Counted from the stretch's first letter, positions 8,368-23,055 are shown. The stretch is DNA of 35,310 bases from an uncultured Azospirillaceae bacterium (GCA_964440165.1 CAYTQF010000002.1:1-35310); one strand, 5' to 3'. The notes: generated by a model not told the origin, from the letters alone. Translations and numbers: made by a program.

Positions 8368-8369
8368 GC

Positions 8370-8651
8370 TCAGTACATCAAAGTTTTAATTCTTCCGTCA
8401 GACAGCCAAATATCTATTCCTGTATTTATCATTTTTTTTAATGCCTCGGCTTCTTGTTTTGATTGTAGTTTCCCCCAGCTTTGTAATTCATCAACGGAAA
8501 GTTCTGTTATAAAATTGGAGAATTCCAAAACAAGATTAGTATTTCTTGGATAATTTCCCGTATTTTGAAAGAGATTATTCTCAAAATACCAAAAAAGTTC
8601 ATCAGCTTTTAGTTTTGTTTTATATGTTATTTTCATTTTTAATAGTCCCAT
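8370..8651 (-). CDS. Hypothetical 93-aa protein, the only gene of the leftward operator-controlled transcript
   Basis: The ORF is preceded by a TTGACT-N16-TATATG promoter overlapped by two ATAAC-N5-GTTAT operators. Its stop is 2 bp from the trkH stop. Confidence 0.5.
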   Translation of the reverse strand: MGLLKMKITYKTKLKADELFWYFENNLFQNTGNYPRNTNLVLEFSNFITELSVDELQSWGKLQSKQEAEALKKMINTGIDIWLSDGRIKTLMY

Positions 8652-8663
8652 TTGTCTTTATGT

Positions 8664-8712
8664 ATAACATATAGTTATTAAAAAATGAAAGTCAAATATA
8701 ACTAATTGTTAA
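8664..8712 (-). promoter_or_regulatory. Leftward promoter with two repressor-operator copies
   Basis: ATAAC-atata-GTTAT (8664-8678) and ATAAC-taatt-GTTAA (8698-8712). On the minus strand the -35 is TTGACT (8695-8690) and the -10 is TATATG (8673-8668). Confidence 0.5.
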
Positions 8713-8737
8713 TAACTTGATTGAGATGTAAAATAAA

Positions 8738-8980
8738 TTACAATTTTATGTTGTTGCAATTTTGAAGAAGTTTTTGTTCAATATCTTGCAGCAGTTGTTC
8801 GTAAGTAAATTGAGTAATATTTTTATAGGAGTAATAATTGTACTGCTTACGGTATTCCAAATGAATTTTAGAGGCTTTTTTATGTTCGCATTCAGCTAAT
8901 TGCAAAATTTTTTGATGGATAATTTCCGCATCTTTTGCGGTTATTAGTGTGAGTTTATCAACCGGAATGTTGTCGGCTCT
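8738..8980 (-). pseudogene. 80-codon open frame with no Met; apparent C-terminal part of the membrane protein at 8979-9176, displaced by 1 nt at a T9 run
   Basis: My hand translation gives RADNIPVDKLTLITAKDAEIIHQKILQLAECEHKK...NCNNIKL with no stop and no ATG. Removing one T from the T9 run fuses it to the upstream ORF. Confidence 0.45.
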
Positions 8981-9176
8981 AAAAAAAAACCAAAATCAGA
9001 ATTGTAAAACAAATACATACACATGCACAGCAATAAATCAGACTGTTTCCGGCAGTCTGTACATTGATGTTCAGGTTGTTGGCATTCGAAATAGGGGAGT
9101 TGGCTGAAGAATGACTGATGTCATCAACATTTTTGGCGCGAGCTAAAATTTCCTCAATTTTATCATCAACTCTCAT
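8979..9176 (-). CDS. Small membrane protein (N-terminal fragment?) co-transcribed with the repressor
   Basis: Its ATG overlaps the repressor stop (TGATG). It has a Cys-rich TM helix LIYCCACVCICFTILILVFF and ends at a TAG created inside the T9 run. Confidence 0.5.
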   Translation of the reverse strand: MRVDDKIEEILARAKNVDDISHSSANSPISNANNLNINVQTAGNSLIYCCACVCICFTILILVFF

Positions 9177-9586
9177 CAGTTGGCCTTTTTGATGGTTTCG
9201 TAAACTTCCATAAAATCAATGATTTTAGCGTTTCTTTGTTTTTCCGGAAGATTATATACTTTAGTGAAAATGAGGCGAATAAGCTCAGCTTTATCCTTTG
9301 GTTCATAAAAAACCTTATGTGCCAAAGCCCATGCTTCAACTTTTTCAATTACATTCGCAAAACAATCAATAGCCTGTTCACCCAAATCGTTTGATTCGAA
9401 TTCAAATAAGTAATTAGGCGTTGTATGAAAATATCTGCAAAATTTGGCAATAAAAGCATAATCAGCTTCACGTTTTCCGTTGATATACTGATTAAGTCTT
9501 GGCTGGCTTACTCCGAGTTGTTCGGCGACAAAAGTTTGGCTTTCACCGGAGTTTTCCACAATTAATTTCATGCGTTTATCTATCAT
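9176..9586 (-). CDS. XRE/CI-like HTH repressor with no S24 peptidase domain
   Basis: N-terminal HTH_3 pattern (SQTFVAEQLGVSQPRLNQYINGKR). The gene is divergent from the early operon. No SD is present and the predicted start site lies at or near the ATG. Confidence 0.8.
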   Translation of the reverse strand: MIDKRMKLIVENSGESQTFVAEQLGVSQPRLNQYINGKREADYAFIAKFCRYFHTTPNYLFEFESNDLGEQAIDCFANVIEKVEAWALAHKVFYEPKDKAELIRLIFTKVYNLPEKQRNAKIIDFMEVYETIKKAN

Positions 9587-9598
9587 GTATCCGAGGAT

Positions 9599-9663
9599 AT
9601 CACAATTTGTTAAAGAGTCAAATAACTATTTGTTATTGATTTTCTATAACGTGATGTTATGAT
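9599..9663. promoter_or_regulatory. Tripartite operator and divergent promoters (genetic switch)
   Basis: ATCAC-aattt-GTTAA (9599-9613), ATAAC-tattt-GTTAT (9622-9636) and ATAAC-gtgat-GTTAT (9646-9660). Rightward promoter is TTGATT(9636)-N16-TATGAT(9658). Leftward promoter is TTGACT(9621-9616)-N16-TATCCT(9599-9594). Confidence 0.55.
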
Positions 9664-9701
9664 TATTTTCGGTTTAATAAAATTGGAAAGGACTACTAAT
9701 T

Positions 9702-10079
9702 ATGGATGAAGAATTAAACCGTTGTGAAAAATTGGTTATGGCAATTATCAGACAATGCCTTAAAGATTTGGTTGCGACCCGTGGTAGCGGGTATACCAAA
9801 CAAAGCTGTCGAGAAGCTTTTGATTTTTTCTTTAACGAATCATCGACAACGCATCGCAGTTTTAAGGAATGGTGTGATATTTCAGGATTAAACAGCACCT
9901 ATTGGCAGAGAATGGCTTATATGCATTTAGCTGCAGCTTTGAAAAAAACACCGTTTTTGCGTTATCGGATTAGTCGCTATATGCACGGCAAGCATAATTA
10001 TTTGATTTTGAGAAATTGTATTCGTAATTTGCCTGAGCTTCAAAAGATAGAAATATTGGGAGGGGATATTGATGATTAG
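9702..10079 (+). CDS. Hypothetical early protein (125 aa)
   Basis: First gene of the rightward operon, with a GGAAAGGA SD. No motif recognised. Confidence 0.6.
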   Translation: MDEELNRCEKLVMAIIRQCLKDLVATRGSGYTKQSCREAFDFFFNESSTTHRSFKEWCDISGLNSTYWQRMAYMHLAAALKKTPFLRYRISRYMHGKHNYLILRNCIRNLPELQKIEILGGDIDD

Positions 10080-10443
10080 AACAATAGAGGATGTTAAAGA
10101 AAAATTAGAATTTGCAGCTGAAATTATGCGCCGTTTGCCATCAGTAAAAGTGCAAGGATATATTTGTTCTTGGCCTGATTTTGTAAGAAAAGAAGAAGAG
10201 ATGAAAGGCTCATCGGATATTTGGTTGCATCCGTTACCTGAAGAAATTACGGATATGGAGAATATTTTAGAATGGTTGCGTTTTGTTCCTTTGGAAGAAC
10301 GACGTTTGATTTGGTTGCGAGCATGCGGTATGGGATGGAAGCATTTGACCAAATATTTCAAAAAAAGCCGTACAACATTGGATAGATATTATAATGGCGG
10401 CTTAAATAAGATTTTAGCAGCATTAATTGAAAAAAAATTATAA
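10069..10443 (+). CDS. Putative HTH regulator (sigma-70 region-4-like / DUF6362-like)
   Basis: The C-terminal segment EERRLIWLRACGMGWKHLTKYFKKSRTTLDRYYNGGLNKI resembles region-4-type HTH proteins of alphaproteobacterial prophages, judged from memory of the family. Confidence 0.5.
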   Translation: MMIRTIEDVKEKLEFAAEIMRRLPSVKVQGYICSWPDFVRKEEEMKGSSDIWLHPLPEEITDMENILEWLRFVPLEERRLIWLRACGMGWKHLTKYFKKSRTTLDRYYNGGLNKILAALIEKKL

Positions 10444-10509
10444 CAAAATAAAAAAGGAGGTACGCCTTATTGGATAAGGATTTGCAAAGATTAGACGTTA
10501 CATTTTGAT

Positions 10510-10567
10510 ACAAAATGAAACAAAATAGAACAAAAAAGTACAAAACAGGTAGAGACAAATACAAAAA
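10510..10567. repeat. Helically phased ACAAAA repeats
   Basis: ACAAAA starts at 10510, 10520, 10530 and 10540 (exact 10-bp period), with further copies at 10555 (ACAAAT) and 10561. Confidence 0.6.
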
Positions 10568-10622
10568 GTTGTGCTATGAATAGAGCTACAATAGCGAAAG
10601 TAATGTTGTTAGAGGATGTTCC

Positions 10623-10859
10623 GTGAAAAAGTCAAAAAAAATGGATGCCGCTAAACAGCAGTTGGTGGAAGAGCTTGAGGAAGCGCGTCTGATTGCACTT
10701 GAAACCAAAAGTTCGGCGGCTATGGTATCGGCATCAATAGGAAAAGCCAAAATTTTAGGGCTTATAAGTGAAAAGACCAAAAAAGAAAATGATGCTGCAG
10801 AGTTAAAGATAAAACCGGTTTTAGTAAAATTTATTACCGGAGAACCCGAAAAAGAATAA
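10623..10859 (+). CDS. Small charged protein; possible small terminase or DNA-packaging accessory protein
   Basis: 78 aa (GTG start; alternative ATG at 10641), immediately upstream of TerL. The AKILGL segment is reminiscent of small-terminase C-termini. The call is weak. Confidence 0.4.
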   Translation: MKKSKKMDAAKQQLVEELEEARLIALETKSSAAMVSASIGKAKILGLISEKTKKENDAAELKIKPVLVKFITGEPEKE

Positions 10860-10869
10860 ATCATGTCAA

Positions 10870-10904
10870 ACATCCCGTATTGTGTATTACGGGATGTTTT
10901 TTTG
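10870..10904 (+). terminator. Rho-independent terminator between the early operon and TerL
   Basis: 10-bp stem ACATCCCGTA / TACGGGATGT, 8-nt loop, T7 run. Confidence 0.8.
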
Positions 10905-10916
10905 TGAGAGAAACAG

Positions 10917-12236
10917 ATGTGTCGAGAAGTTCAAATCGCAGATAAATTTGCACCTTTAATGACAATGTCCAAACGTATTAAGTTTTATTATGGCGGACGT
11001 GCCGGTGGAAAATCGTATGCTTTTGCAGACAGCCTGCTATTACTGGGACGACAGAAAAAACTTTTAATCGCGTGTCTGCGCGAAATTCAAGATTCAATTA
11101 AAGATTCCGTGTATAAATTATTATGCGATAGAATTGCTTTGTATGAACTCGGAGATTATAAAATCTTTGAAAATCGGATAGAAAATACGGTAACAGGCAG
11201 TAAATTTATTTTCAAAGGGTTGAGGGAGCAAGATGCTCAACATATTAAATCTTTGGAAGGTGTCGATATCGCTTGGATAGAAGAAGCTCAAACCATAACT
11301 AAAAAATCATGGGAGATTTTAGAGCCGACGATTCGTAAAGACGGTTCCGAGATTTGGATATCTATGAATCGAGAACTTGAAAACGATGCTTTGTGGATGG
11401 CTGTTGCGGCTCAACCGGATGAGAGGACTTTTGTTTGCAGAGTAAATTATGACGACAATCCTTTTTGTCCGGAAGAAATCAAGCTGCAGGCTCAAAAATG
11501 CAAAGAAAAGAATTATGAAGATTATGAGCATATTTGGCTCGGAGAACCATTACGTCAAGGACATAATAAATTAATTTCGTCGCATTTGGTGAGAGAAGCT
11601 TTCAAAACCAGAATAAGCGCTTCAACATCTCCTTTGGTTATCGGTTTAGATATTGCCAGATTTGGAGATGATGCCACATCGTTTTGTTTTCGCAAAGGAC
11701 GTTTATGTTTAAAGTTTTTGAGTTTTCGTAAACTGGATAATGTCGGTGTTGCCAATCAGACTACGGCATTTATTAATGAGTATCATCCGTACCGTATTTT
11801 TATGGATATAGGCGGACAAGGCGCCGGAGTATATGATATTTTACGAGACAGGGGCTTTGGAGAAATTATCCGAGGCGTATATTTTGGTGAAAGGGCGATT
11901 AATGAAGAACGTTATTTTAACCGCCGCGCAGAAATGTGGGATGGTATCTTAAGTTGGTTGGACAGCAAACCTCAGGTACAGTTACCTTCGGATGAAGAAT
12001 TATTTAATGATTTAACCGGCGTGAATAAAAAATACGATCGCCGCGGACGATTGCAGCTGGAGGAAAAAGACGAACTTAAAAAACGTCTTGGTCGTTCACC
12101 TGATAAGGGCGATGCTTTGGCGTTAACCTTTGCAGAACCGGTTTATGATATCGGAAAACCGAGTTTATATGATACGGGAGAAGTCAGTATCGGGCAATTG
12201 TTTAAGGAAATGAATAAAGGAGGAAGCGGATGGTAA
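10917..12236 (+). CDS. Terminase large subunit (PBSX / Terminase_3-like)
   Basis: Walker A GGRAGGKS, Walker B-like IAWIEEAQ, and a C-terminal RNaseH-like nuclease region (GLDIARFGDD). Confidence 0.9.
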   Translation: MCREVQIADKFAPLMTMSKRIKFYYGGRAGGKSYAFADSLLLLGRQKKLLIACLREIQDSIKDSVYKLLCDRIALYELGDYKIFENRIENTVTGSKFIFKGLREQDAQHIKSLEGVDIAWIEEAQTITKKSWEILEPTIRKDGSEIWISMNRELENDALWMAVAAQPDERTFVCRVNYDDNPFCPEEIKLQAQKCKEKNYEDYEHIWLGEPLRQGHNKLISSHLVREAFKTRISASTSPLVIGLDIARFGDDATSFCFRKGRLCLKFLSFRKLDNVGVANQTTAFINEYHPYRIFMDIGGQGAGVYDILRDRGFGEIIRGVYFGERAINEERYFNRRAEMWDGILSWLDSKPQVQLPSDEELFNDLTGVNKKYDRRGRLQLEEKDELKKRLGRSPDKGDALALTFAEPVYDIGKPSLYDTGEVSIGQLFKEMNKGGSGW

Positions 12237-12643
12237 ATCTCAATCATTATTGGTTGGCTTATTTGGCGGGAGAAACAGTAGGAAACGCTGTTGCAACTTA
12301 TAAAAACATGAGATACAATCAAAATCAAATGCAACAAGATAATAAAATTGGAGCTGATAATTTTTATCATGCCAAGGCAGCATGTGAAGCAACTCAACAA
12401 GGATTGGACAGTATGTCTTGGGCATTGGCTGGCGGAGTCGCAAAAGAAGTAAGAGATTTGTATTGTAAAACGCAAGGACGTTGCGGGGAAAGACAAATCA
12501 ATTTTTCTGAAGCATGGAATGATAGTAAAAAAGATATGCTGAATAATTTCTTGGGTGCCGATCTTGGTTTAAAAAATAAAAATACGCCATGTAGAGTATT
12601 AATCAATGATTACAGAACAAAACATAATAAAGAAATTTATTGA
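12230..12643 (+). CDS. Serum amyloid A (SAA)-like protein
   Basis: [21 protein letters not shown]...[13 protein letters not shown] aligns by eye with SAA [21 protein letters not shown]...[17 protein letters not shown] SD present. Overlaps the TerL stop. Confidence 0.5.
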   Translation: [137 protein letters not shown]

Positions 12644-12650
12644 TATATTA

Positions 12651-12761
12651 ATGAAACAAGTCAAACTTTGTTTGAAATATTTTTTTATCACAATTATTGT
12701 TTTAATGATAATTGGACAGATAGCTTTTTTTATCGATCCGATTTGGACGGATGGATTTTAA
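12651..12761 (+). CDS. Possible 36-aa single-TM peptide
   Basis: MKQVKLCLKYFFITIIVLMIIGQIAFFIDPIWTDGF. No SD. It lies between the SAA-like gene and a terminator. Confidence 0.3.
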   Translation: MKQVKLCLKYFFITIIVLMIIGQIAFFIDPIWTDGF

Positions 12762-12790
12762 GTTGAAAAAATTTCAGGAATGATAAAGTC

Positions 12791-12816
12791 AGCCCGCTTT
12801 TCAGCGGGTTTTTTTT
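12791..12816 (+). terminator. Rho-independent terminator
   Basis: AGCCCGC-N6-GCGGGTT stem with one G.T pair, followed by a T-run. Confidence 0.55.
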
Positions 12817-12830
12817 ATGGAGAAAATATA

Positions 12831-13103
12831 ATGGAAAAAGGAAGTGCCGAACCAAGGGTGAGGGCGATTATGGATAGAATTTTCGTTCGCTTAGACAAGT
12901 TGCCGCAAAGTAATGTTTTTTTGCCGGAAAATTATGAGCAGGAACGTTGCATCGGAACGGTAGAAAGTGTCGGCGAGCAAGTTAAAAGTGTGAAAACCGG
13001 AGATAGAGTTCTGTTTCATGTTTTTGATGAGTTACCGGCGCCGGAACCTGATTTGGTTGTTGTACGAGAACGCAGTCTGCTTGGTATTTTTACCGATAAT
13101 TGA
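12831..13103 (+). CDS. GroES/Cpn10-like co-chaperonin
   Basis: DRIFVRL...IGTVESVGEQVKSVKTGDRVLF...LLGI parallels GroES DRVIVKR...GEVLAVG...VKVGDIVIF...ILAI. GGAG SD precedes ATG 12831. Confidence 0.55.
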   Translation: MEKGSAEPRVRAIMDRIFVRLDKLPQSNVFLPENYEQERCIGTVESVGEQVKSVKTGDRVLFHVFDELPAPEPDLVVVRERSLLGIFTDN

Positions 13104-13119
13104 AATAAGGAGAAAATTT

Positions 13120-13773
13120 ATGAATACTCAAATATCACTGGAAACGCTTTTAGGCAAAATTTCTAAAGCCGAAAAGATTTATTCCGAATATTATGATTTG
13201 GTTCGTGAAACCCGTGAATATTATAAAGACAGTCGTAAAAACGGTGCAGGAAAGTATAATATTTTTTGGTCTTCCATTGAGACCTTAAAGCCGTTTTTAT
13301 ATTTCAAACAACCACAGGTATATGTGGAACGAACAAATCGAACCGCGTCTCTTGTGGAAAATACGGCTTGTCGAATATTGGAAAAGGCACTTACCTGGGA
13401 TTTAACACAGTTTGATTTTGACAGTATTATTAAATACGCTCGTAATGATTTTTTAATCTCGGGCTGTGGTATCGTATGGGAACAATATCGACCGGAATTC
13501 ACAGAATTGCAGGATCCTGAAGACGAAAATAAACTCTTGTCTGTAAAAACGGGAGAGACGGTTATTTCGAGTTATGTGAATCCGGAATATTTTTTAGCGG
13601 ATTGCGACAAAGTTGGTATTTGGGAGAATGTTAATTGGATTGCCCGTAAAATATTTATGGATAATAAGGAATTAGTTCGTCGTTTTGGTACAGAATATGA
13701 AAGTTCTGTATTAGATAAGAAAGAAGTTTGCGTTTATGAGGTATGGCATAAGCCTGATAAAAAGGTTTATTAG
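13120..13773 (+). CDS. Portal (head-tail connector) protein, N-terminal part ending at an in-frame TAG
   Basis: AAGGAG SD precedes ATG 13120. It is in the same frame as 13801-14880, with one TAG (13771-13773) between them. Confidence 0.7.
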   Translation: MNTQISLETLLGKISKAEKIYSEYYDLVRETREYYKDSRKNGAGKYNIFWSSIETLKPFLYFKQPQVYVERTNRTASLVENTACRILEKALTWDLTQFDFDSIIKYARNDFLISGCGIVWEQYRPEFTELQDPEDENKLLSVKTGETVISSYVNPEYFLADCDKVGIWENVNWIARKIFMDNKELVRRFGTEYESSVLDKKEVCVYEVWHKPDKKVY

Positions 13774-13800
13774 CTGTGTCGGGAAATTCCGCATAAGTTT

Positions 13801-14880
13801 TTGAAGGTTAGTGATGATCCGCTGCATATCAGCGGATTTTTTCCATGTCCGAAACCGATTTTTGCAACGCAGACCAATGACAGCATTATTCCTGTACCGG
13901 ATTACTGCCTGATAAAAGAAATGCTTAATGAACTGAATGGTATAACCGGTAGAATGAAGTTGATTATGCAGGCTTTAAAAGTCAGCGGTGCATACGATAA
14001 ATCATTTCCCGATTTGTATAACATCTTAAATAAGGATGTTACATTGGTTGCGGTCAGTGATTTTCAAAAGCTGAGAGATTGCGGCGGTATTCGCGGTATT
14101 ATAGATTTTGCACCGATTGAACAGTATATTTTGGCATTAGAACAGTTATCCGTACGACGTGAAGATGTGGTTCGCCGTATTTTTGACGTTACGGGTGTTT
14201 CTGATATCATGCGAGGTAACAGCAATGAGGTTGAAACAGCTACAGCTGTTCGCCAAAAAACGAATTTCGGTACACTTAGAAACCAAGATCGTCAGAACGA
14301 TATGCAACGATTTATTGCGGATTTGTACAGAATTAAGGCTGAGATTATCTGTGAGCAGTTTTCTGAAAAATCCTTAATTGAATTTTTACCGGAAGAAGAA
14401 CGTCAAAACATAGCCATCATTAAGGCGGCTGTTGCTTTGCTGAAAACTGAAAAATTGCGTGGCATGGCACTTCGGGTTGAGAGTGATGCTGTCTTTAATC
14501 AGGAAGAAGAAGCTCAAAAGGTTATCAATGGTGTTACAACGATTAACACAATGATTCAAGAGGCATTTATGTCTGTTTCTCAGCAGCCGTTATTATTACC
14601 GTTGTATAAGACAATGATTGAGGCTGTTGTGGCATCAATGCCGCGTGCTCGTATGTTTGAAAGCGTTATTGAGCAAACCTTTAATCAAATCGGTGAAGAA
14701 CTGAATCGTCCTGAACCGGAACCTCAGCCACAGCCTGTTATAATCAATAATGATAATGAAGCTGAAAAAGTAAGGAACGCTCTCAAAGCGCGCGAACTGG
14801 ATATCCGTGAATTTGCAGAAAGAGAAAAAGCTCGTCTGAATCGTGAAGAACTGAAACTCAAGCAGGAGCAACAAAAATAA
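13801..14880 (+). CDS. Portal protein, C-terminal part (the open frame continues directly from codon 13774)
   Basis: No stop between 13774 and 14880. The combined length is 586 codons, and the position after TerL is typical of podovirus portals. Confidence 0.7.
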   Translation: MKVSDDPLHISGFFPCPKPIFATQTNDSIIPVPDYCLIKEMLNELNGITGRMKLIMQALKVSGAYDKSFPDLYNILNKDVTLVAVSDFQKLRDCGGIRGIIDFAPIEQYILALEQLSVRREDVVRRIFDVTGVSDIMRGNSNEVETATAVRQKTNFGTLRNQDRQNDMQRFIADLYRIKAEIICEQFSEKSLIEFLPEEERQNIAIIKAAVALLKTEKLRGMALRVESDAVFNQEEEAQKVINGVTTINTMIQEAFMSVSQQPLLLPLYKTMIEAVVASMPRARMFESVIEQTFNQIGEELNRPEPEPQPQPVIINNDNEAEKVRNALKARELDIREFAEREKARLNREELKLKQEQQK

Positions 14881-15909: not shown

Positions 15910-16929
15910 ATGGCAAATACAAATTATAATGATATTTTTACAACAACATTGGAAGGACGCAGCGGTATTTTGGCCGATAACGTTTCTGCCAATAACGCTT
16001 TGTTGAAACGTTTGCAGGAAAACGATAAAATCCGTACAATTTCCGGCGGATCTAAAATTGTTGAAGAATTGGAATATGGCGAAGGTGATTTGACATGGTA
16101 TTCCGGTTATGAGCAAATCCAATATACACCTAAGCAATTATTTACAGCTGCAGAATATTCTTTGAAACTTTGTGCGGTTCCGGTTGCTGTTTCCGGTGAA
16201 GATATGCTCAAAAATGCCGGTCGTGAACAGATGATGGATTTGTTTGAAAAACGCATTAACAATGCTTTCAAAACCATGTGTAATAAAATGTCTGCTGCTG
16301 TTTATTCTGACGGTACCGGTTCTTCAGGTAAAGAAATCGGAGGTTTGGCTCTGTTGGTTGCCGATGCTCCCGAAACCGGAACAGTAGGCGGTATCAATCG
16401 CGCAACGGCAGGTAATGAATTTTGGAGAAATAAATCATTAACACCTGCGGAAGGCATTACATCTGAAAATATTTTGAGAAATATGGATAAAATGTATATG
16501 CAGCTTTGCCGCGGTACGGACAAACCGGATCTGATCGTTGCCGGTACGGATATGTATTCAACATTTGAACAGGCTTTAACTCCGTTACAGCGTTTCAGTG
16601 ATCCGAAGTTGGCTGATGCCGGTTTTGCCTGCCTCAAATATAAAAATACGGATGTAATTTATGATGGCGGCCAGGGCGGTAGCTGCAATGATAAAAAAAT
16701 GTATTTCCTGAATACAAATTATCTGTATCTGCGCCCGCATAAAGACAGAAACATGGTTGTAATCGGCGGTGAACGTGTTGCCGTTAATCAGGATGCTTTG
16801 TATAAAATCATCGGTTGGGCAGGAAACTTAACAATGTCTAACGCCGGTTTGCAGGGTGTATTGATTAGTGCGGCTTCAGATAGCAAAGTAGACACAGAAA
16901 CAAAACAAGATGAAAACGAAAATGAATAA
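15910..16929 (+). CDS. Major capsid protein
   Basis: 339 aa, located after the scaffold gene, with a GAGGAAAG SD and a stable hairpin directly downstream. Confidence 0.75.
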   Translation: MANTNYNDIFTTTLEGRSGILADNVSANNALLKRLQENDKIRTISGGSKIVEELEYGEGDLTWYSGYEQIQYTPKQLFTAAEYSLKLCAVPVAVSGEDMLKNAGREQMMDLFEKRINNAFKTMCNKMSAAVYSDGTGSSGKEIGGLALLVADAPETGTVGGINRATAGNEFWRNKSLTPAEGITSENILRNMDKMYMQLCRGTDKPDLIVAGTDMYSTFEQALTPLQRFSDPKLADAGFACLKYKNTDVIYDGGQGGSCNDKKMYFLNTNYLYLRPHKDRNMVVIGGERVAVNQDALYKIIGWAGNLTMSNAGLQGVLISAASDSKVDTETKQDENENE

Positions 16930-16943
16930 TTAATCTAAAAAAG

Positions 16944-16969
16944 GAGGACGGCTCTAAAGAACCGTCCTC
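16944..16969 (+). other. Stable stem-loop after the capsid gene with no T-tract
   Basis: GAGGACGG-N10-CCGTCCTC. Confidence 0.5.
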
Positions 16970-16989
16970 TATTGTCAGGGGAAGATAAG

Positions 16990-17547
16990 ATGGATTTTAA
17001 TACGTTTCAAAAAATTGCGCAAAACAGTAATCCGGAAGAAGGCATAATTGCCCGTTTTTATGACAAGGCCGTAAAAACGGATAAAGTAAGCTCGGATGGT
17101 TTACCTGTTTTTCAAAACAAATGCTTTGTTGAGATCAGAATCAGAGATAATAATTCCGAGGTTTTCGATCAGCCTGCGACACCGGAAAAAATCAAGCGTT
17201 TTCCTGTTGAATATGCGCGTTATCAGTTGGGACGCAAACAAGTGGAAAAAGGAACGCCGTTGGAGCAGTTTGCTTTTTTAACGGCGGCAGAAGTAGAAAC
17301 TCTGAAAATTCGCGGAATATTTACAGTCGAAGCATTGTCTGAATTGAGCGATGATAAATGCGATCTGTTAAAAATCAAAACAGAACGTGATTTGGCATTA
17401 AAGTTTTTGTCGGCTTCCCGCAATAATCAAAGCATCGTCAGCTGGCAGAAAAAAGAAGAAACTTATCTGGCTGAAATAAATGCATTAAAAGAGGCTTTAG
17501 CTGAATTAAAGAAAAATTCAGTGCCCAAAAAGAGCAGGAGAAAATAA
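16990..17547 (+). CDS. Hypothetical virion or assembly protein (186 aa from ATG 16990; the listed ORF starts at TTG 16972)
   Basis: Position in the late operon. Basic C-terminal tail. Confidence 0.5.
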   Translation: MDFNTFQKIAQNSNPEEGIIARFYDKAVKTDKVSSDGLPVFQNKCFVEIRIRDNNSEVFDQPATPEKIKRFPVEYARYQLGRKQVEKGTPLEQFAFLTAAEVETLKIRGIFTVEALSELSDDKCDLLKIKTERDLALKFLSASRNNQSIVSWQKKEETYLAEINALKEALAELKKNSVPKKSRRK

Positions 17548-18257
17548 TGAAAAATATTTTACAAATATGCAAAGAAGCAGCGGCTCTGGTTGCAACTCAG
17601 CAGCCTGAAAATCTTTTTGATGCATCATCTCAGCAAGAGGCTGTATTCTTAAGTATAGCAAGGGATACACTTGACAGTTTGCTGCGTTATGGAGATTGGC
17701 CTGAGTTGACCAAAGAAGGTTCATTTAAAACAGTTGCCGGGAAAATGAATTATTTTATCGGTGAGGAATGTCATGATTTTTATTCTTTGCTGAATAATAC
17801 CGTATATATCAAAGACAGTCGGGAAAAAATTATCGGAGCTATCACGCCGGAACAGTGGATGAAAGAAAAATATTTTGATGTTGCCTCATTGGATATCAAA
17901 TTCAAACTTCAAAACGGAATGTTTAAATTTTTAACGCCGCCGCCGGCAGATATGACGATTGTTTTTCAGTATCGCTCGTCAGGAATTGTAATGGATACCG
18001 ATAATGAATATGCTGAAAAGTCTGTATTAGATAAAAATACGGACATTCCTGTATTTGATGAATTTTTAGTCAAAAAAGGCATCGTGTGGCGTTGGTATCG
18101 TCGTAACGGTATGCCTTATGAGGAAGAATACGATGAGTATATTCGCGAAGTAAGAGTAAAATTTGGAAATTCGTTGTCTACACAAGATATAAGTTTGGCT
18201 CGTACGATAGAAAATCTTAATCCGGGAGTAATAGTCAATGCGGCAAAAGTTTATTGA
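17547..18257 (+). CDS. Hypothetical head-tail adaptor or tail protein
   Basis: ATGA-type coupling to the upstream gene. Called from position only. Confidence 0.45.
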   Translation: MKNILQICKEAAALVATQQPENLFDASSQQEAVFLSIARDTLDSLLRYGDWPELTKEGSFKTVAGKMNYFIGEECHDFYSLLNNTVYIKDSREKIIGAITPEQWMKEKYFDVASLDIKFKLQNGMFKFLTPPPADMTIVFQYRSSGIVMDTDNEYAEKSVLDKNTDIPVFDEFLVKKGIVWRWYRRNGMPYEEEYDEYIREVRVKFGNSLSTQDISLARTIENLNPGVIVNAAKVY

Positions 18258-19788
18258 CAGAAGTAATAAATCTCAAAACTACATTTTATCTGCGCCGATA
18301 GGTGGTTTGAATGCTCGAGATAGTTTGGATACGATGTCTCCGTTAGATGCTGTGGTAATGGATAATTATATTCCGTTAGATACAAAAGTGATCTTGCGCA
18401 AAGGATTTAACGAATATGTAAAACTGGAGGATCCGGTACAGACATTGGTTTCTTATAAATTATCCGATGCCAATCATTTTCTGGCATTCAGCGGTAGCAA
18501 AGTATATGATATTTCTACCAAATTAAATGTAAAAACATATGAAAAAGATTTTAATAACAGTTACTGGCAGCATTGTCAGTTTAAGAATCGTTTGATTTTT
18601 GTAAATGGTACGGATGCGCCGCAAACGTTCTATGTTGAGAACGATAAAATTGTCTTTGAGGAACTGCATTTAGAAGGTTTCGGCTTAACACCACAGAAAT
18701 TGATAAATGTCTGTATGTCAAAACAACGTTTGTTTTTTGTAGAAAAAGGCAGTTTAACGTTTTGGTATTCTTCCGGTGTCGGAGAAGTGCAGGGAACTTT
18801 GAATCGTTTTGATTTATCAACAATAGCTCGCGACGGCGGAGAGTTGGTCGCCATTGCTTCATGGACACAAGATGGCGGGCAAGGTATTGACGATATGACC
18901 GTATTTCTAACGTCGGAAGGTGAGGCTATAATTTATGCCGGAAGTAACCCGAACAGTGCTTCTGATTGGTGCTTAAAAGGTGTGTTCAGGATGAGCAAAC
19001 CAATCGGTTATCGTTGTGTTTTACCGTATCAGGGTGATATAATTATCATTTCTGAAGATGGTTATATTCCATTATCAAAAGCATTACCTCTGGAACAAGC
19101 AAACAGTTCTCAAATTGCATTTAGTGATAAAATACGAGGAATAGTGTTGGAATGTACTCGGAGCAACAAAAGTAAAAAGGGTTGGCAGGGAATTATTTAT
19201 GGCCGTGGCGGCTATGCAATATTTAATGTACCTGTATCACAGCATTTTGAACAGCATGTGATTAATGTCAATACCGGGGCTTGGTGCCGTTTTACGGGAA
19301 TTAACGCAATTTGTTGGGGTGAGTACGAAGGTCGTATGTATTTGGGAATGACAGATGGTGTTTATCTGTTTGATGAAGGCTATTCAGACAATAAAATGCA
19401 TATTTGCGGACATGTCGAACAAGCATATAATAATCTGGGCAGTAATAATCTGAAAAAAATACAATTGTTAAATCCACGTACGAAATCATCAACCAAGTAT
19501 GCGTTGGTTATTTATACCAATATGGATTTTGCCGACAGAAACAAATCTTATGTAGAAAATATCGGTAGCAGCGGTTTAACCAAGTGGGATAGAACACCGT
19601 GGAGTTGTTTAACATCTCCCACAGGGAGCAAATGGGCAACACTTAAGGGTACAATTCGTAGTCAATGGATAGCGGCATCAGCCACCGGCTTTAAAGCCAG
19701 CATTGTATTTAAAACCAAAACCAGAGGTAATCTGATAGAATGGTATGATACGGGAATACGTTATGAAAACGGCAGCGGAATTTTGTAG
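18238..19788 (+). CDS. Large tail structural protein (516 aa)
   Basis: Called from size and position upstream of the fibres. Beta-rich sequence. Confidence 0.5.
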   Translation: MRQKFIDRSNKSQNYILSAPIGGLNARDSLDTMSPLDAVVMDNYIPLDTKVILRKGFNEYVKLEDPVQTLVSYKLSDANHFLAFSGSKVYDISTKLNVKTYEKDFNNSYWQHCQFKNRLIFVNGTDAPQTFYVENDKIVFEELHLEGFGLTPQKLINVCMSKQRLFFVEKGSLTFWYSSGVGEVQGTLNRFDLSTIARDGGELVAIASWTQDGGQGIDDMTVFLTSEGEAIIYAGSNPNSASDWCLKGVFRMSKPIGYRCVLPYQGDIIIISEDGYIPLSKALPLEQANSSQIAFSDKIRGIVLECTRSNKSKKGWQGIIYGRGGYAIFNVPVSQHFEQHVINVNTGAWCRFTGINAICWGEYEGRMYLGMTDGVYLFDEGYSDNKMHICGHVEQAYNNLGSNNLKKIQLLNPRTKSSTKYALVIYTNMDFADRNKSYVENIGSSGLTKWDRTPWSCLTSPTGSKWATLKGTIRSQWIAASATGFKASIVFKTKTRGNLIEWYDTGIRYENGSGIL

Positions 19789-20224
19789 TTTGGTTGCAGA
19801 TAAAGGCAATTTAATTGCTGATTGGGTCTGTCAGAATTTAAATTCGGATACGAATTGGCTGGGAAACAACATAACGTACGGTATTGTGAAAAATAACAGG
19901 CTGCTGGGTGGTTTAATTTTTCATGATATTCATATCGGGCACGATGTGTGGTGGACGATTTATACCAATGACAAACACTGGTGCAATCGCAGACTGTTGC
20001 AGTTTTTTTTGCAAGAAGCATTTGAACGTTTGCAGTGTCGACGGATTAATCTTTTAGTTAATCCGGATAATACGGCATGCCTTAAGTTGGTAACACGTAT
20101 GGGATTCAAAATTGAAGGATGCCTGCGTTCTTTCAGAGATGATGGCGGTGATTGCTATATTTTAGGATTGCTGCCGAATGAAAGTAAATTTTATAAAGGA
20201 GAGAAAAAATGTCAAAATCATTAG
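19763..20224 (+). CDS. GNAT-family N-acetyltransferase (RimJ/RimL-like)
   Basis: The block LLQFFLQEAFERLQCRRINLLVNPDNTACLKLVTRMGFKIEGCLRSF...DCYILGLL matches the Acetyltransf_3-type core. It overlaps both neighbouring genes. Confidence 0.55.
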   Translation: MKTAAEFCSLVADKGNLIADWVCQNLNSDTNWLGNNITYGIVKNNRLLGGLIFHDIHIGHDVWWTIYTNDKHWCNRRLLQFFLQEAFERLQCRRINLLVNPDNTACLKLVTRMGFKIEGCLRSFRDDGGDCYILGLLPNESKFYKGEKKCQNH

Positions 20225-21078
20225 GTTTAAGCAGCTATAAAGCCAAATTTAATCCGGCTGCTTTTGAGGCTCTGAATTATCTGAATAAAGTGGATACATC
20301 TGTAGCCGATAATACAAATAAAACAATGGCAAACGCCGGTTACAGTTTGGCACAAAATTTGATGTCTCGTCCGGATTATATTTATACGGTCGATGGTTCT
20401 GATGCAGCACGGCAACGAGCTGAAGCAGCAACATATAATTCATATATTGAAAAACTGAAACCTCAATTTTCACAACAAACCGAAGATTTAGAAACCAGAT
20501 TGCAAAATCAGGGATTGAGTGTCGGTTCGGAGGCTTATCAACGCGCCATGTCAGATTTGCAAAACACACAGAATAGTGCATTAAATCAAGCAGCATACAA
20601 CAGTGTTTTGAGTGGACAACAGGCATTTAGTAACAGCTTGCAGGATAATATCAGCAGTGCCTCTTTTTCCAATAATGCTCGAGTATTGCCTATCTCTGAA
20701 ATTCAGAGTCTGTTGGCTAATTCGCCGACCGGTTATCAAGTTGCTATGAATAAATATAATATCGGCAGCGGCGCTTATGATCAGATGTATACACAACAGC
20801 ACGCATATAATACACAACGTGATGATAATTTAAAAAAGACAATCGGAGCTACCGGACAGTTTTTGGCTTTGTTATCAGATAGGGAATTAAAAGAGAACCT
20901 GCAAAAAGTTGGAAAATTGGATAATGGATTAACAATTTATCTCTTTAATTATATAGGAGATAATACACCTCGTATCGGCTTAATAGCCCAAGAGGTACAA
21001 GAAGTAAAACCGGATGCGGTAGAAGAAAATGCAGATGGTTTTTTAAGCGTCCGCTATGATTTGGCGGTTCAAAAATAG
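20209..21078 (+). CDS. Tail fibre/spike-associated protein with a C-terminal S74 intramolecular-chaperone domain
   Basis: LSDRELKENL...GLTIYLFNY...RIGLIAQEVQEVKPDAV...FLSVRYD is the typical auto-cleaving chaperone signature. Confidence 0.65.
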   Translation: MSKSLGLSSYKAKFNPAAFEALNYLNKVDTSVADNTNKTMANAGYSLAQNLMSRPDYIYTVDGSDAARQRAEAATYNSYIEKLKPQFSQQTEDLETRLQNQGLSVGSEAYQRAMSDLQNTQNSALNQAAYNSVLSGQQAFSNSLQDNISSASFSNNARVLPISEIQSLLANSPTGYQVAMNKYNIGSGAYDQMYTQQHAYNTQRDDNLKKTIGATGQFLALLSDRELKENLQKVGKLDNGLTIYLFNYIGDNTPRIGLIAQEVQEVKPDAVEENADGFLSVRYDLAVQK

Positions 21079-21086
21079 TTAGAAGT

Positions 21087-21117
21087 ACCGGCAGTATTTT
21101 TACTGCCGGTTTTTTTA
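21087..21117 (+). terminator. Rho-independent terminator inside the late region
   Basis: ACCGGCAGTA-tttt-TACTGCCGGT followed by T6. Confidence 0.8.
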
Positions 21118-21132
21118 TGAAAGGAGAAGACA

Positions 21133-21873
21133 ATGCCATTTGACAGTGAAGGAAATTTTAGCCGTCTTCATAACTGGGAAGATGATCGCAAAAATGATAT
21201 TGATATTGTAACAGATCGTCATGATGAAGAAGATGACAATTTTGCAGCAGGCTTATCTGAATGCTTTTTAAAAGATGGGCGCAGTGCCATGAAGGGCGAT
21301 TTGGATGCCGGAGATTTCAGAATCAAACATGTTGCCACCGGTATTCAGGATACTGATGCCGTAAATAAAAAGCAATTATCGGTACTACAAGAAAGTATTT
21401 GTAAGGTTTTGAATGCTGCAATAAAAATCGGCGATATTAAAGCCAGTGGTATTCAACAGGATCATGATAGTTGGATGTTGTGTGATGGACGAGAACTTGA
21501 ACGCAGCGAATATTCATCATTATTTGATGTAATTGGAACCAGTTTCGGTGTCGGAAATGATAGTACAACATTTAATATTCCGGATTGCCGCGGTGTATTT
21601 TTACGCGGTACGGATTGCGAAAGAGGATTTGACGAAGGTCGTGAATTAGGCAGCTATCAGGACGATGCATTTCAAGGACACTTCCATGGATCAACCAGCA
21701 ATTTGAAAACCGGTAGCAATGGCGGTGGTTATTACAGTGGTAATTTGGGCGGACAAATTGCAACGATTACCGGCCCGATAACGGATGGTGAAAACGGAGA
21801 ACCACGCATTGCGTCAGAAACACGTCCAAAAAATATTGCCGTCAACTATTTTATAAAAGTAGCGGAAGATTAA
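21133..21873 (+). CDS. Tail fibre protein with a phage tail-collar domain
   Basis: WMLCDGRELERSEYSSLFDVIGTSFG...FNIPDCRGVFLRG is the Collar-domain signature. Confidence 0.7.
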   Translation: MPFDSEGNFSRLHNWEDDRKNDIDIVTDRHDEEDDNFAAGLSECFLKDGRSAMKGDLDAGDFRIKHVATGIQDTDAVNKKQLSVLQESICKVLNAAIKIGDIKASGIQQDHDSWMLCDGRELERSEYSSLFDVIGTSFGVGNDSTTFNIPDCRGVFLRGTDCERGFDEGRELGSYQDDAFQGHFHGSTSNLKTGSNGGGYYSGNLGGQIATITGPITDGENGEPRIASETRPKNIAVNYFIKVAED

Positions 21874-21879
21874 AACCTT

Positions 21880-22074
21880 ATGGAGCCGAATATGGAAAAA
21901 ATTTTAGAAGATTCAAAGGTTATCGGTTCGGCAGGATTAGCTTTGGGATTGGAATATGCTCAAATATTAAATTCTTTTTTATCTCTTCTTATCAGTATCT
22001 GTACTCTGATATATGTCGGAAACCGGGCTTATCAGATTATTAGTAACTGGCTGAAAGGCGACCGTTATGATTGA
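21880..22074 (+). CDS. Putative holin
   Basis: 64 aa with two hydrophobic segments and a charged C-terminus. Its stop overlaps the endolysin start. Confidence 0.45.
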   Translation: MEPNMEKILEDSKVIGSAGLALGLEYAQILNSFLSLLISICTLIYVGNRAYQIISNWLKGDRYD

Positions 22075-22555
22075 GAAAAAAGAAATTATAAGAAGGTTAA
22101 CTCTGCATGAAGGATTAAGATTAAAACCTTATCGCTGTTGTGCCGGTAAGTTAACAATCGGTGTTGGTCGAAACTTAATAGACAATCCGCTGAGTAAAAC
22201 CGAAAAACAGTACCTGAGGCGGGATAATCTTAAAGACGGTATAAATATGGCAGAAGCAACATATTTGTTAATGAATGATATTAACAATCATTGGGCCGAA
22301 TGTCGAAAATATATTGAGTGTTTTGCATCACTGGATCATGAACGCCAATATGCATTATTGGATATGTGTTTTAATCTGGGAATTAGGGGATTATTGAAAT
22401 TTCGTAAAATGCTCAATGCATTAAGTATCGGTGATTACCGTGGTGCAGCAAAAGAATGTCTGCAAAGTAAATATGCAAAAGATACCGGAACAAGAGCGGT
22501 TCGCATTTCACGTTTGCTGGAAGATGGCGTCTGGAGGGAGAATGTCAAAATATAA
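22067..22555 (+). CDS. Endolysin, GH24 T4-type lysozyme
   Basis: HEGLRLKPYRCCAGKLTIGVGRN aligns with T4 lysozyme E11...D20...T26, with Cys at the D20 position. Confidence 0.85.
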   Translation: MIEKKEIIRRLTLHEGLRLKPYRCCAGKLTIGVGRNLIDNPLSKTEKQYLRRDNLKDGINMAEATYLLMNDINNHWAECRKYIECFASLDHERQYALLDMCFNLGIRGLLKFRKMLNALSIGDYRGAAKECLQSKYAKDTGTRAVRISRLLEDGVWRENVKI

Positions 22556-22673
22556 AAAGATTATTCTTTACCTTATATTAATAGTGCTGGGTGCGGCAAT
22601 TCTTTTTCGTCCGGAAAATGCGGAAGATGTTGCACGTGCCATATTGGTTATCCTAGGAGGTCTTGAATGCTGA
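22542..22673 (+). CDS. 43-aa two-TM protein in the lysis cassette (second holin or antiholin?)
   Basis: GGAGG SD. Overlaps the endolysin 3' end and the next gene's start. Confidence 0.45.
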   Translation: MSKYKKIILYLILIVLGAAILFRPENAEDVARAILVILGGLEC

Positions 22674-22873
22674 AGTTTCTTCTGATCAGCAGCAGTATCG
22701 GCTTCTTATGTTTGTTAAGCTATCGGTTGGGAATAGCACGAGCTAAACTTGAAATATTGGAAAAGGAAATAAAAGTTGAACAAAATATTTCACAACAAAA
22801 AAGCCGAATTTATTCTCGTCCCAATGCTTCTAATGCTGAACTGCTGCATCTCTTCCGCGACAATGTCATGTAA
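22667..22873 (+). CDS. i-spanin (Rz-like)
   Basis: N-terminal TM helix plus a coiled-coil region, AGGAGG SD, and an o-spanin frame embedded in it. Confidence 0.55.
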   Translation: MLKFLLISSSIGFLCLLSYRLGIARAKLEILEKEIKVEQNISQQKSRIYSRPNASNAELLHLFRDNVM

Positions 22874-23024
22874 TTGTCCTGTGTATCCGGTAGGAGGTAA
22901 TCGGGTAGGGCAGGAATTATCTGCGTTACCGGAAGACAGCTGCCCGTATTTATGGGAGTGGATCGGACGAATCAATAAATTGCGTCAGGAATTGGAAATA
23001 TGTCAAAAAAATTGTTCCGGATAA
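22824..23024 (+). CDS. o-spanin (Rz1-like lipoprotein), overlapped architecture
   Basis: MLLMLNC lipobox-like start in the +1 frame of the i-spanin gene. The short Cys-rich mature part extends beyond the i-spanin stop. Confidence 0.5.
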   Translation: MLLMLNCCISSATMSCNCPVYPVGGNRVGQELSALPEDSCPYLWEWIGRINKLRQELEICQKNCSG

Positions 23025-23044
23025 ATCTCCGGAACAATTTTTTC
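23011..23044. terminator. Bidirectional terminator between the prophage end and ppiD
   Basis: ATTGTTCCGGA-N6-TCCGGAACAAT flanked by an A-run and a T-run. Confidence 0.8.
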
Positions 23045-23055
23045 TGTTTTTATAA

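Follow-up and report, generated by a model that had tools for sequence, protein, structure and literature searches.

A compact podovirus-like gene cassette between trkH and ppiD in an uncultured alphaproteobacterium, a candidate domesticated particle producer

The 35,310-nucleotide stretch of an uncultured Azospirillaceae bacterium analyzed here (GCA_964440165.1 CAYTQF010000002.1:1-35310; hereafter the window, whose numbering is used throughout) carries a block of phage-type head, tail and lysis genes between the host genes trkH and ppiD, at positions 8370–23024 (14,655 bp). On balance, our analysis favors reading this cassette as a chromosomally fixed and vertically inherited viriform that resembles gene transfer agents (GTAs) and PBSX. 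It probably derives from a temperate podovirus of the Mx8/ppBjS10J-like kind and has been kept by selection for particle making and lysis in a large clade of uncultured Alphaproteobacteria of gut and rumen. Judged by gene content, the integration, excision, recombination and replication functions of the ancestral podovirus have been lost. More tentatively, the cassette family may represent an undescribed, podovirus-derived GTA of uncultured gut and rumen Alphaproteobacteria, that is, a further independent domestication, which would have kept its repressor/SOS switch, would package chromosomal DNA with a TerS (small terminase) deprived of its DNA-recognition domain and would be fixed in hundreds of species.

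Locus, inheritance and intactness of the cassette

The open reading frames (ORFs) of the cassette were searched against the profile collections Pfam, PHROGs and NCBIfam. No cassette ORF matched a family of recombinases, transposases, excisionases, primases, helicases, polymerases or replication initiators in these collections, and NCBIfam added nothing beyond the Pfam and PHROGs assignments. The remainder of the 35-kb contig, all of it housekeeping genes, holds no integrase, excisionase or replication gene either. The window is the entire contig, as a protein cluster 100% identical to g18 has 35,310 bases as its longest contig. The Pfam and PHROGs searches thus bear out the preliminary description of this DNA, which had reported a phage block between trkH and ppiD without such genes. 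The lack of mobility and replication families is tempered by several small early proteins that match no family whatever. A search for att-type direct repeats flanking the cassette gave short chance-level families only. The cassette has two arms. The leftward arm holds a repressor, a 65-amino-acid ORF, perhaps a 55-amino-acid ORF and a 93-amino-acid gene (g01). The rightward arm runs from the early genes g04, g05 and g06 through packaging and head genes and then tail and fiber genes to the lysis genes.

The left flank of the cassette is formed by TrkH (6925–8367, Pfam PF02386) and the right flank by PpiD (23056–24945, minus strand, Rotamase/SurA_N), which is convergent with the cassette end. 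On the left, 2 bp separate the trkH stop (8367) from the stop of the minus-strand g01 (8370), in agreement with the preliminary description. On the right, the last cassette ORF ends at 23024, leaving 31 bp to ppiD. Both junctions, for which a check had been proposed in the preliminary description, recur in independent assemblies of a sister species with about 84% DNA identity, the left one in locus L170 and the right one in locus L082. These two assemblies derive from other samples and so support the junctions independently. In addition, a Logan contig is 100% identical to positions 16873–19804 of the window.

Relatives were sought by their major capsid protein (MCP) in a distribution scan of one genome per GTDB species. 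This resulted in at least 246 species-level genomes. At the protein level, more than 6000 clusters are homologous to the MCP. The best 80 of the 246 genomes have 68–82% MCP identity. Nearly all of these 80 are labelled as uncultured gut or rumen Alphaproteobacteria or proteobacterial metagenome-assembled genomes (MAGs), many of them mislabelled 'Azospirillum sp.', and two are binned as Bacteroidaceae and Acutalibacteraceae. Collinear order was found in about 70 loci for the large terminase (TerL), a Cpn10-like gene, the portal, g13, the scaffold, the MCP, g16, g17, g18, a GNAT acetyltransferase, an S74 protein, fibers and lysis genes. In the relatives annotated with Pfam the cassette measures 15–19 kb and has host genes on its borders, and the flank contexts are specific to MCP clades. 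The cassette of L083 lies between metG-orf-trkH and AsmA. In L087 and L088 a CTP-transferase gene is followed by g01 and an S24 repressor, and at the other end the lysozyme gene by an M23 peptidase gene. In L085 and L086 (3526–6088) a host nitroreductase gene is followed by a cluster that opens directly with a full-length small terminase (TerS) of the Terminase_2 type. This last lineage is very prevalent: 81 blocks of the assembly collection list its MCP cluster. None of the annotated relatives (L082, L083, L085–L088 and L170) contains an integrase, recombinase, transposase or replication family, and their early unassigned proteins have no recombinase or Rep match. The preliminary description had also considered that the cluster might occur only within complete 35–45 kb phages and be absent from this locus in relatives; this is not what was seen, the relatives with at least 68% MCP identity being chromosomal cassettes.

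The cassette abuts trkH in seven assemblies, namely the window, L170 (TrkH 92% identical) and L002–L006 (TrkH 64–65% identical). In this trkH-locus group the spacing between trkH and g01 is 0–2 bp or a small overlap. In L082, with an MCP 98% identical to that of the window, the cassette adjoins ppiD, and in nine species it lies beside a host M23 peptidase gene. Pairwise identity of TrkH among the six trkH-locus taxa correlates with that of TerL (0.91), portal (0.75), MCP (0.77), g17 (0.84) and the S74 protein (0.91), and the host-cassette rho for the nine M23-locus species, in which the host protein diverges to 60% identity, is 0.75–0.88, both tests being based on few taxa and non-independent pairs. 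Synonymous divergence (dS) of the cassette genes relative to L170 is 0.9–2.9 (0.26 for g06 and 0.51 for g08), matching the 1.0–1.7 of the flanking housekeeping genes, and in the comparison with L082 it matches the dS of ppiD; between the window and both of these loci dS is near saturation.

Purifying selection was estimated from the ratio of nonsynonymous to synonymous divergence (dN/dS), as proposed earlier together with the comparison of loci. The ratio is 0.005–0.13 per conserved gene, and for the concatenated core genes it is 0.04–0.10 in 13 species pairs, including unsaturated pairs (dS 0.05–0.3). Intact core genes were counted by tblastn in 58/58 cases for TerL, 66/67 for the portal, 81/81 for the MCP, 69/69 for g17 and 66/66 for g18, with the portal of the window as the exception. 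The core G+C content tracks that of the host flanks over the range 0.33–0.50 (r = 0.85), with a mean difference of 1.5 points. A conserved locus, co-divergence, selection, intactness and adapted composition are not predicted, any of them, by a randomly decaying prophage. Caudoviricete-like head, tail and packaging genes, no replication, integration or excision of their own, evolution in concert with the host and purifying selection are features by which GTAs and viriforms are recognized (PMC9662315, PMC12946183), and all of these were found here.

A clean empty site, with trkH directly beside ppiD, was not found. In the more distant relatives L171 and L172 (10001–12561; TrkH 61% identical) recA comes after metG-orf-trkH, and neither the cassette nor ppiD is present, so that insertion and ancestral presence at this site are not separable. 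In this clade, synteny breaks down to the right of trkH.

The portal gene of the window (13120–14880, plus strand) was called earlier as two intact ORFs, but it is one gene interrupted by an in-frame TAG at 13771–13773, and phrog_12082 matches both halves (8e-33 and 1.5e-68). The frame is continuous across the TAG, which arose by a single G-to-A change from TGG at a conserved tryptophan. The aligned column in 68 relatives holds tryptophan in 57 and tyrosine in 11, and the sister-species locus L082 has TGG. The same TAG is present in the independent Logan assembly of run SRR9122728, on contig L174, which corresponds to positions 12873–13801 of the window. Because trkH itself ends in TAG, this codon does act as a stop here. 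Contig L174 breaks off 28 nt past the TAG, an offset that is no exact fit to a k=31 bubble; the break may be due to low coverage alone or to a sampled population in which both TAG and TGG occur.

The nonsense codon makes it probable that this copy is inactive, and its particle production was, as far as the sequence tells, very probably switched off recently. Could the whole cassette then be an ordinary defective prophage remnant, heading for deletion and without any selected function? Such a remnant would agree with the nonsense codon, with the absence from this copy of about 4 kb of fiber-region genes that L002–L006 possess, and with the lack of arms for int, xis and replication. For the family as a whole, however, it is contradicted by a gene set that is intact in about 60–80 species with the core dN/dS given above, by loci conserved over host protein divergence to about 60% identity and by a composition ameliorated to each host. 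The nonsense codon itself is private, with tryptophan or tyrosine in 68/68 relatives. We therefore regard a functionless remnant as scarcely credible. The preliminary description had left the choice between a decaying prophage and a domesticated podovirus-like particle producer. The second part is supported at family level, through locus, co-divergence, selection and intactness, through the lack of integrase and replication genes in the loci examined and through the TerS and nozzle proteins described below; the first holds for this copy only, through its portal TAG.

Packaging genes and the predicted particle

The gene g06 (10623–10859, plus strand) encodes a truncated TerS of 78 amino acids, as indicated by alignment to the TerS of L026. 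Residues 21–71 of g06 show 48% identity to residues 97–146 of this 147-amino-acid protein, which matches Pfam Terminase_2 (8e-11) via its N-terminal residues 26–107. The C-terminal part common to both proteins contains the motif [KQ]x[VLM]LVxF[VI]. As g06 aligns only with the C-terminal ~50 residues of a Terminase_2 TerS, it is a TerS without the helix-turn-helix (HTH) domain. Its sequence predicts a C-terminal piece that keeps the oligomerization and TerL-binding end and has lost the N-terminal HTH. The 78-amino-acid small terminase candidate of the preliminary description was thus correctly named, with the amendment that only the C-terminal part is present. Sherlock et al. (PMC6854486) proposed that loss of the N-terminal DNA-binding domain defines the GTA-type TerS and accounts structurally for random packaging, and the TerS of FpGTA is likewise reported to have no obvious DNA-binding domain (PMC12946183). 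The truncation is present in the window, the trkH-locus group and the M23-locus group, where TerS is accordingly of the GTA type.

The TerL gene follows at 10917–12236 (plus strand, 439 amino acids). Its assignment to the PBSX/Terminase_3 type, already made in the preliminary description, is confirmed by Pfam (9.5e-35), and it also matches phrog_3717 (1e-53). TerL has a dN/dS of 0.014, and the nearest TerL of a cultured or deposited phage is only about 32% identical. Between TerL and the portal lies a gene for a Cpn10/GroES-like protein (12825–13103, plus strand; Pfam Cpn10 8e-07, phrog_3188). This arrangement is family-wide, occurring in 66–67 loci, and neither ppBjS10J-1, a related complete phage, nor the IMG/VR contig L095 yielded the gene. 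The Cpn10-like gene is characteristic of the cassette family, and its product possibly aids capsid folding.

Downstream of the portal, the head module comprises g13 (14881–15111, plus strand, 76 amino acids), a conserved protein found in 76 loci, with a 75-amino-acid gene at the equivalent position in Sulfitobacter phage pCB2047-C. It is followed by a putative scaffolding protein of 246 amino acids (15104–15844, plus strand), assigned by position and composition. The scaffold gene is collinear in 58–68 loci and weakly similar to the gene upstream of the MCP in ppBjS10J-1. The MCP (15910–16929, plus strand, 339 amino acids) matches the major head protein family phrog_9953 (1e-103), and the MCPs of some relatives carry Pfam PF17236. 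Its dN/dS relative to L082 is 0.005. An exact-protein look-up of the window MCP gave no match. The MCP is 40–48% identical to those of Mx8, Mx9, ppBjS10J-1, BUCT555 and Ruegeria 45A6, phages with genomes of 39–53 kb. If the geometry of these phage relatives has been kept, the heads would hold about 40–50 kb, approximately three cassette lengths. Heads holding about 40 kb could enclose the whole 14.7-kb cassette, which would be a departure from the GTA criterion that particles are too small for their own gene set. Hints that the heads carry random host DNA are indirect, namely the truncated TerS, the lack of excision and replication and the 39–53 kb genomes of phages with related MCPs.

The tail module begins with g16 (16972–17547, plus strand, 191 amino acids), a head-tail connector candidate that matches phrog_20268 (2e-16) and has a collinear homologue in ppBjS10J-1, and g17 (17547–18257, plus strand, 236 amino acids), a candidate adaptor that matches the 'tail protein' family phrog_6013 (8e-29). 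The next gene, g18 (18238–19788, plus strand, 516 amino acids; phrog_5107), has homologues in ppBjS10J-1 and pCB2047-C and was modelled with AlphaFold2 (AF2). The model has a beta-propeller core and is of moderate confidence, with a pLDDT of about 90 for residues 56–380 and 65 overall. Its best fold matches in the PDB are tail or nozzle chains of the podoviruses Pa223, SU10, Pan3, VP1, Pam1 and PhiM1 (E 1e-12 to 1e-6). On the strength of this model, g18 is a podovirus nozzle-type protein (tail hub). PDB sequence searches with g18, g17, MCP, g05 and g01 gave no usable matches. No tape-measure, tube or sheath family was found among the cassette ORFs with Pfam and PHROGs, the longest ORF being g18 itself. 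Given the nozzle fold and the lack of tape measure, tube and sheath, a short-tailed particle is the supported morphology.

The tail module continues with the GNAT acetyltransferase gene (19745–20224, plus strand; Pfam Acetyltransf_1, phrog_4470). As this gene has the equivalent position in ppBjS10J-1 and pCB2047-C, it belonged to the tail module ancestrally and is no passenger. It is followed by g20 (20209–21078, plus strand), a virion or fiber protein with a C-terminal Peptidase_S74 intramolecular chaperone (Pfam PF13884 5e-09, phrog_6121 1e-40), and by a tail fiber with a Collar domain (21133–21873, plus strand; Pfam PF07484 3e-16, phrog_523 6e-32).

A particle of this kind need not serve DNA transfer. 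The cassette might be domesticated as a killer particle of the PBSX kind, or as a device for regulated lysis that sets free the cell contents, with the packaged DNA incidental and undelivered, an alternative that was raised for FpGTA as well (PMC12946183). Its layout is parallel to that of PBSX: the repressor is of the Xre type, an activator candidate is found among the early genes, TerL belongs to the PBSX family, head, tail and lysis genes are present, and an integrase is absent. Furthermore, the four to five large ejection or internal proteins (417–551 amino acids) that follow the g20 homologue in ppBjS10J-1 are missing here, so DNA delivery could suffer. The strongest constraint, on the other hand, falls on terminase, portal and capsid, as seen in the dN/dS values of TerL and MCP, and would be needless if the element served lysis only. 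A podovirus tail lacks the contractile sheath that a tailocin would require, and the truncation of TerS points to an adaptation related to packaging. We consider a killer particle or lysis device unlikely, though worth keeping in mind. Satellite (including phage-inducible chromosomal island) and tailocin readings were rejected, as capsid, portal and terminase genes are present and genes for the exploitation of a helper are not.

Immunity switch, proposed control and the autonomy of the element

The repressor (9176–9586, minus strand, 136 amino acids) is of the Xre/Cro-C1 type, matching Pfam HTH_3 (4e-08) and transcriptional regulators in PHROGs (1e-12). Its dN/dS relative to L170 is 0.008. The repressor slot of other lineages is occupied by a protein with an HTH and a Peptidase_S24 domain (LexA/cI-like), and in L085 and L086 no repressor adjoins the cluster. 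Directly downstream of the repressor lies the 65-amino-acid ORF (8979–9176, minus strand), which has a hydrophobic C-terminus and no family match. It is also present in L170 and L083 and is 97% identical to its L170 counterpart, with a dN/dS of 0.01. The conserved left-end gene g01 (8370–8651, minus strand; 93 or 88 amino acids) abuts the trkH stop. In 21–24 loci a homologue of g01 likewise lies downstream of the repressor, with position and orientation unchanged. The dN/dS of g01 relative to L170 is 0.13, and it has no match in Pfam, PHROG, NCBIfam or PDB. The preliminary description had the left arm driving this single gene, which does not hold, since the 65-amino-acid ORF and possibly the 55-amino-acid ORF belong to the arm as well and g01 has its own promoter region bearing candidate operators.

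These candidate operators are palindromes of the form ATAAC-N5-GTTAT. Two perfect copies (9622–9636 and 9646–9660) lie between the divergent repressor and early genes, and two further operator-like copies lie just upstream of g01, one perfect (8664–8678) and one with a single mismatch (8698–8712). Allowing at most one mismatch, the window contains seven such palindromes compared with 1.64 expected, and 0/100 shuffles reached seven. With two palindromes in front of it, g01 would be derepressed together with the early genes.

The early gene g04 (9702–10079, plus strand, 125 amino acids) is conserved in the trkH-locus group and has no credible family match in Pfam, PHROGs or NCBIfam. It is followed by g05 (10069–10443, plus strand), a DUF6362 protein (Pfam PF19889 1.3e-23, phrog_6836 6e-25) with a dN/dS of 0.016. 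Upstream of g06 and TerL lies a direct-repeat array on the plus strand (10505–10600) with four to five copies at an exact period of 10 bp. The repeats have an ACAAA core in the window and read TGGAACnTTT in five copies in L002–L006. Conserved TAGAGACA and TACAATAGCGA motifs come after the array. The position and spacing of the array are kept in the window, L170 and L002–L006, and its sequence has drifted. It may be either a relic pac site or a late promoter that depends on an activator, and the position of g05 upstream of it makes this protein a candidate late-gene activator. Within the rightward operon, a terminator-like hairpin with a T-run stands between g06 and TerL (10868–10899, plus strand), and further terminator-like hairpins precede the Cpn10-like gene (12791–12810), the MCP (15870–15888) and the collar fiber (21087–21110). 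In total, the region has 22 terminator-like sites compared with 10.5 expected. By analogy with what has been reported for Caulobacter GTA and BaGTA, such internal hairpins suggest antitermination control.

For a domesticated particle producer we propose the following working model, in which regulation, random packaging and DNA delivery are what we infer. The Xre-type repressor, or its S24 LexA/cI-like counterpart elsewhere, would bind ATAAC-N5-GTTAT and thereby silence the divergent early genes and g01. Upon derepression in a subpopulation, g04 and g05 would turn on the late operon, which would start at the promoter behind the 10-bp-phased repeats and read through the internal terminator-like hairpins. 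TerL, together with a TerS that has no sequence-specific DNA-binding domain, would fill heads by the headful with whatever DNA is available. As the element can neither excise nor replicate, this DNA would be chromosomal. A short nozzle-type tail with fibers would be joined to the head, and the particles would be released by holin, lysozyme and spanins.

Several observations weigh against a domesticated producer of this kind. The particle-making and DNA-packaging function is read from sequence alone, and the evidence for vertical inheritance includes the near-saturated dS values and the small, non-independent co-divergence samples described above. The nonsense codon, although private to this genome, strikes an essential gene. 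An AlphaFold model of the MCP, built on a 17-sequence alignment, reached a pLDDT of 46, too low to read a T number. A phage-type immunity switch with four candidate operators has been retained, which is more prophage-like than in RcGTA, and most lineages carry a repressor of the SOS-type S24 kind. Moreover, the TerS of about 24 other loci is full-length and of the Terminase_2 or P22-gp3 type, so that random packaging cannot apply to the whole family; lineages probably differ in packaging specificity, and in situ packaging from a pac site might occur where TerS is complete. Contigs that hold the cassette only occur in the faecal 'Bacteriophage sp.' record MT835830.1 and in IMG/VR. The former has no terminal repeat and no host flanks, and neither proves nor disproves a free phage genome. 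Finally, different clades sit in different chromosomal contexts, and the MAG MGBC133411 carries two diverged copies, L007 on contig 19 and L080 on contig 4, with MCPs 77% and 68% identical to that of the window. Two copies in one MAG and differing clade contexts imply that some relocation has occurred. The pair itself may represent a duplication, a second acquisition or a binning artefact.

Much of this would suit a still autonomous small (15–19 kb) temperate podovirus. Such a phage would integrate and replicate through unrecognized early proteins (g01, g04, g05 or a 302-amino-acid protein of other lineages) or host enzymes, and would re-integrate site-specifically beside trkH or the M23 gene. 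The repressor/operator switch and the S24 repressors, the full-length TerS proteins, the two copies in one MAG with the several chromosomal contexts and the cassette-only contigs all speak for it, as do the variable fiber modules and the many early proteins without a family match. We nevertheless consider it quite improbable, given that no att-type repeats were detected, that the 0–2 bp trkH junctions of the window, L170 and L083 leave no space for an attachment site and that no recombinase, transposase or Rep family occurs in any locus examined. In addition, cassette divergence tracks the adjacent host genes to about 60% host protein identity. The type of MCP, too, belongs to 39–53 kb phages, and MCP identity to the window falls from at least 68% for chromosomal cassettes to at most 54% for complete-looking phages. 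All relatives with at least 68% MCP identity are chromosomal cassettes of 15–19 kb, and complete 39–53 kb phages appear only at 54% or below. IMG/VR contigs at or below 54% reach 35–66 kb, and only three IMG/VR contigs exceed 70%.

Relation to complete phages and known agents, and further genes

The closest complete phages are Mx8-like podoviruses, namely Mx8 and Mx9 of Myxococcus, Bradyrhizobium ppBjS10J-1 and Stenotrophomonas BUCT555, with MCPs 44–48% identical to that of the cassette. ppBjS10J-1 (44.6 kb) has homologues, collinear and 21–48% identical, of portal, scaffold, MCP, g16, g17, g18, GNAT and the N-terminal part of g20. Unlike the cassette, ppBjS10J-1 possesses ERF, YqaJ, NinB, a methylase, regulatory modules and, after the tail genes, four to five genes for large proteins. 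The Mx8-like phages measure 39–53 kb, with an integrase in other members, compared with the 14.7 kb of the cassette (15–19 kb in relatives), which has none of those modules.

Among known agents, BaGTA (Bartogtaviriformidae) is reported to form particles with short or no tails (PMC9662315). It resembles the cassette in its alphaproteobacterial host, its co-evolution with the host and a main structural cluster of 11–13 genes and about 14 kb. It differs in that it requires 29 genes, distributed along some 79 kb, and a run-off replication origin of phage descent; no such origin or additional loci are known here. The TerL of Sulfitobacter phage pCB2047-C nests within the BaGTA TerLs (PMC9662315). 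In this phage (L175, 1–6410 and 36299–40931) the order of terminase, portal, small gene, scaffold and MCP, and further on of a 532-amino-acid protein, an acetyltransferase and a structural protein, is as in the cassette. The two share g18 (27% identity, E 7e-56), g20 and the N-terminal ATPase domain of TerL (28%), and no BLAST similarity was found between their MCPs. With pCB2047-C as a proxy and BaGTA judged by its description, these sequence comparisons hint that BaGTA and the cassette family may descend from related podoviruses.

RcGTA-type agents (Rhodogtaviriformidae) share with the cassette a head-tail cluster without integrase and replication genes, vertical inheritance in Alphaproteobacteria and purifying selection. 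A TerS without the N-terminal DNA-binding domain is a further common feature (PMC6854486). RcGTA differs in being siphovirus-like, with a T=3 oblate head for about 4 kb, control by the host regulators CtrA and GafA and lysis genes at separate loci, whereas the cassette has a nozzle-type tail, lysis genes inside the cluster and a phage-type repressor. The preliminary description had held that described GTAs are siphovirus-like. This is out of date, as FpGTA of Faecalibacterium is described as (probably) podovirus-like, and its packaging of about 9 kb was shown experimentally (PMC12946183). With this agent described in 2026, the argument that no podovirus-like GTA is known loses weight. By description, FpGTA is like the cassette in its gut commensal host, its podovirus-like build and an operon that is near-ubiquitous in the host genus, and it is unlike it in its Firmicutes host and its two operons of 10.5 and 5.5 kb, located 125 kb apart.

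PBSX of Bacillus subtilis resembles the cassette in an Xre-type repressor, an early positive regulator, a Terminase_3 TerL and a single head, tail and lysis block without integrase. The PBSX element is larger than, or unrelated to, the content of its heads. In contrast to the cassette it has a contractile tail, forms a killer particle and resides in a Gram-positive host, and homology between the two is limited to the terminase family. The Mx8/ppBjS10J-like ancestry combined with a retained phage-type switch sets the cassette apart from RcGTA, BaGTA, FpGTA and PBSX. A literature search found no description of the cassette family, which is not proof that none exists.

Few GTA lineages are known, and the resemblance of GTAs to defective prophages hampers the finding of new ones. 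The family described here is large, single-locus, compact and podovirus-derived, and it passes the sequence-level tests of domestication on gene content, inheritance and selection that are feasible without culture. If it does transfer genes, it would give a widespread gut lineage a major means of gene exchange that has so far gone unseen. It also offers natural contrasts that could show how a phage is converted into a GTA: full versus truncated TerS, an S24, an Xre or no adjacent repressor, and an intact versus a nonsense portal.

The lysis genes close the rightward arm. A holin candidate of 64 amino acids (21880–22074, plus strand), assigned by its hydrophobic segments and position, has homologues in five loci and no family match. 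The endolysin (22067–22555, plus strand) is a lysozyme (Pfam Phage_lysozyme 2e-14, phrog_7 2.5e-19). Two overlapping ORFs of 68 and 82 amino acids (22667–23024, plus strand) are candidate spanins without a family match; the family of the 82-amino-acid ORF occurs in 23–35 loci, beside lysis or fiber genes.

The gene g08 (12230–12643, plus strand), located directly after TerL, encodes a 137-amino-acid protein with a weak serum-amyloid-A-like Pfam match. It is present in L170 (12258–12671) and absent from L082, though these two loci share 99% TerL identity, which amounts to a presence/absence polymorphism of about 0.7 kb. In 38 loci, 63 members of the g08 family were counted, and their place within the cassette varies. 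The dN/dS of g08 is 0.17. The gene behaves as a small mobile passenger gene.

The host genes on the left of the cassette are macB, an ABC gene and hlyD, followed by metG, a 271-amino-acid ORF and trkH. On the right, ppiD is followed by tpiA, secG, pyrG, kdsA, recO, a topoisomerase IV/gyrase A-type gene (ParC/GyrA-type), two hydrolase genes and a tRNA-Met gene, the latter being the sole match of an Rfam search. Between the end of the cassette and the convergent ppiD lies a hairpin with a 16-bp stem (23006–23043).

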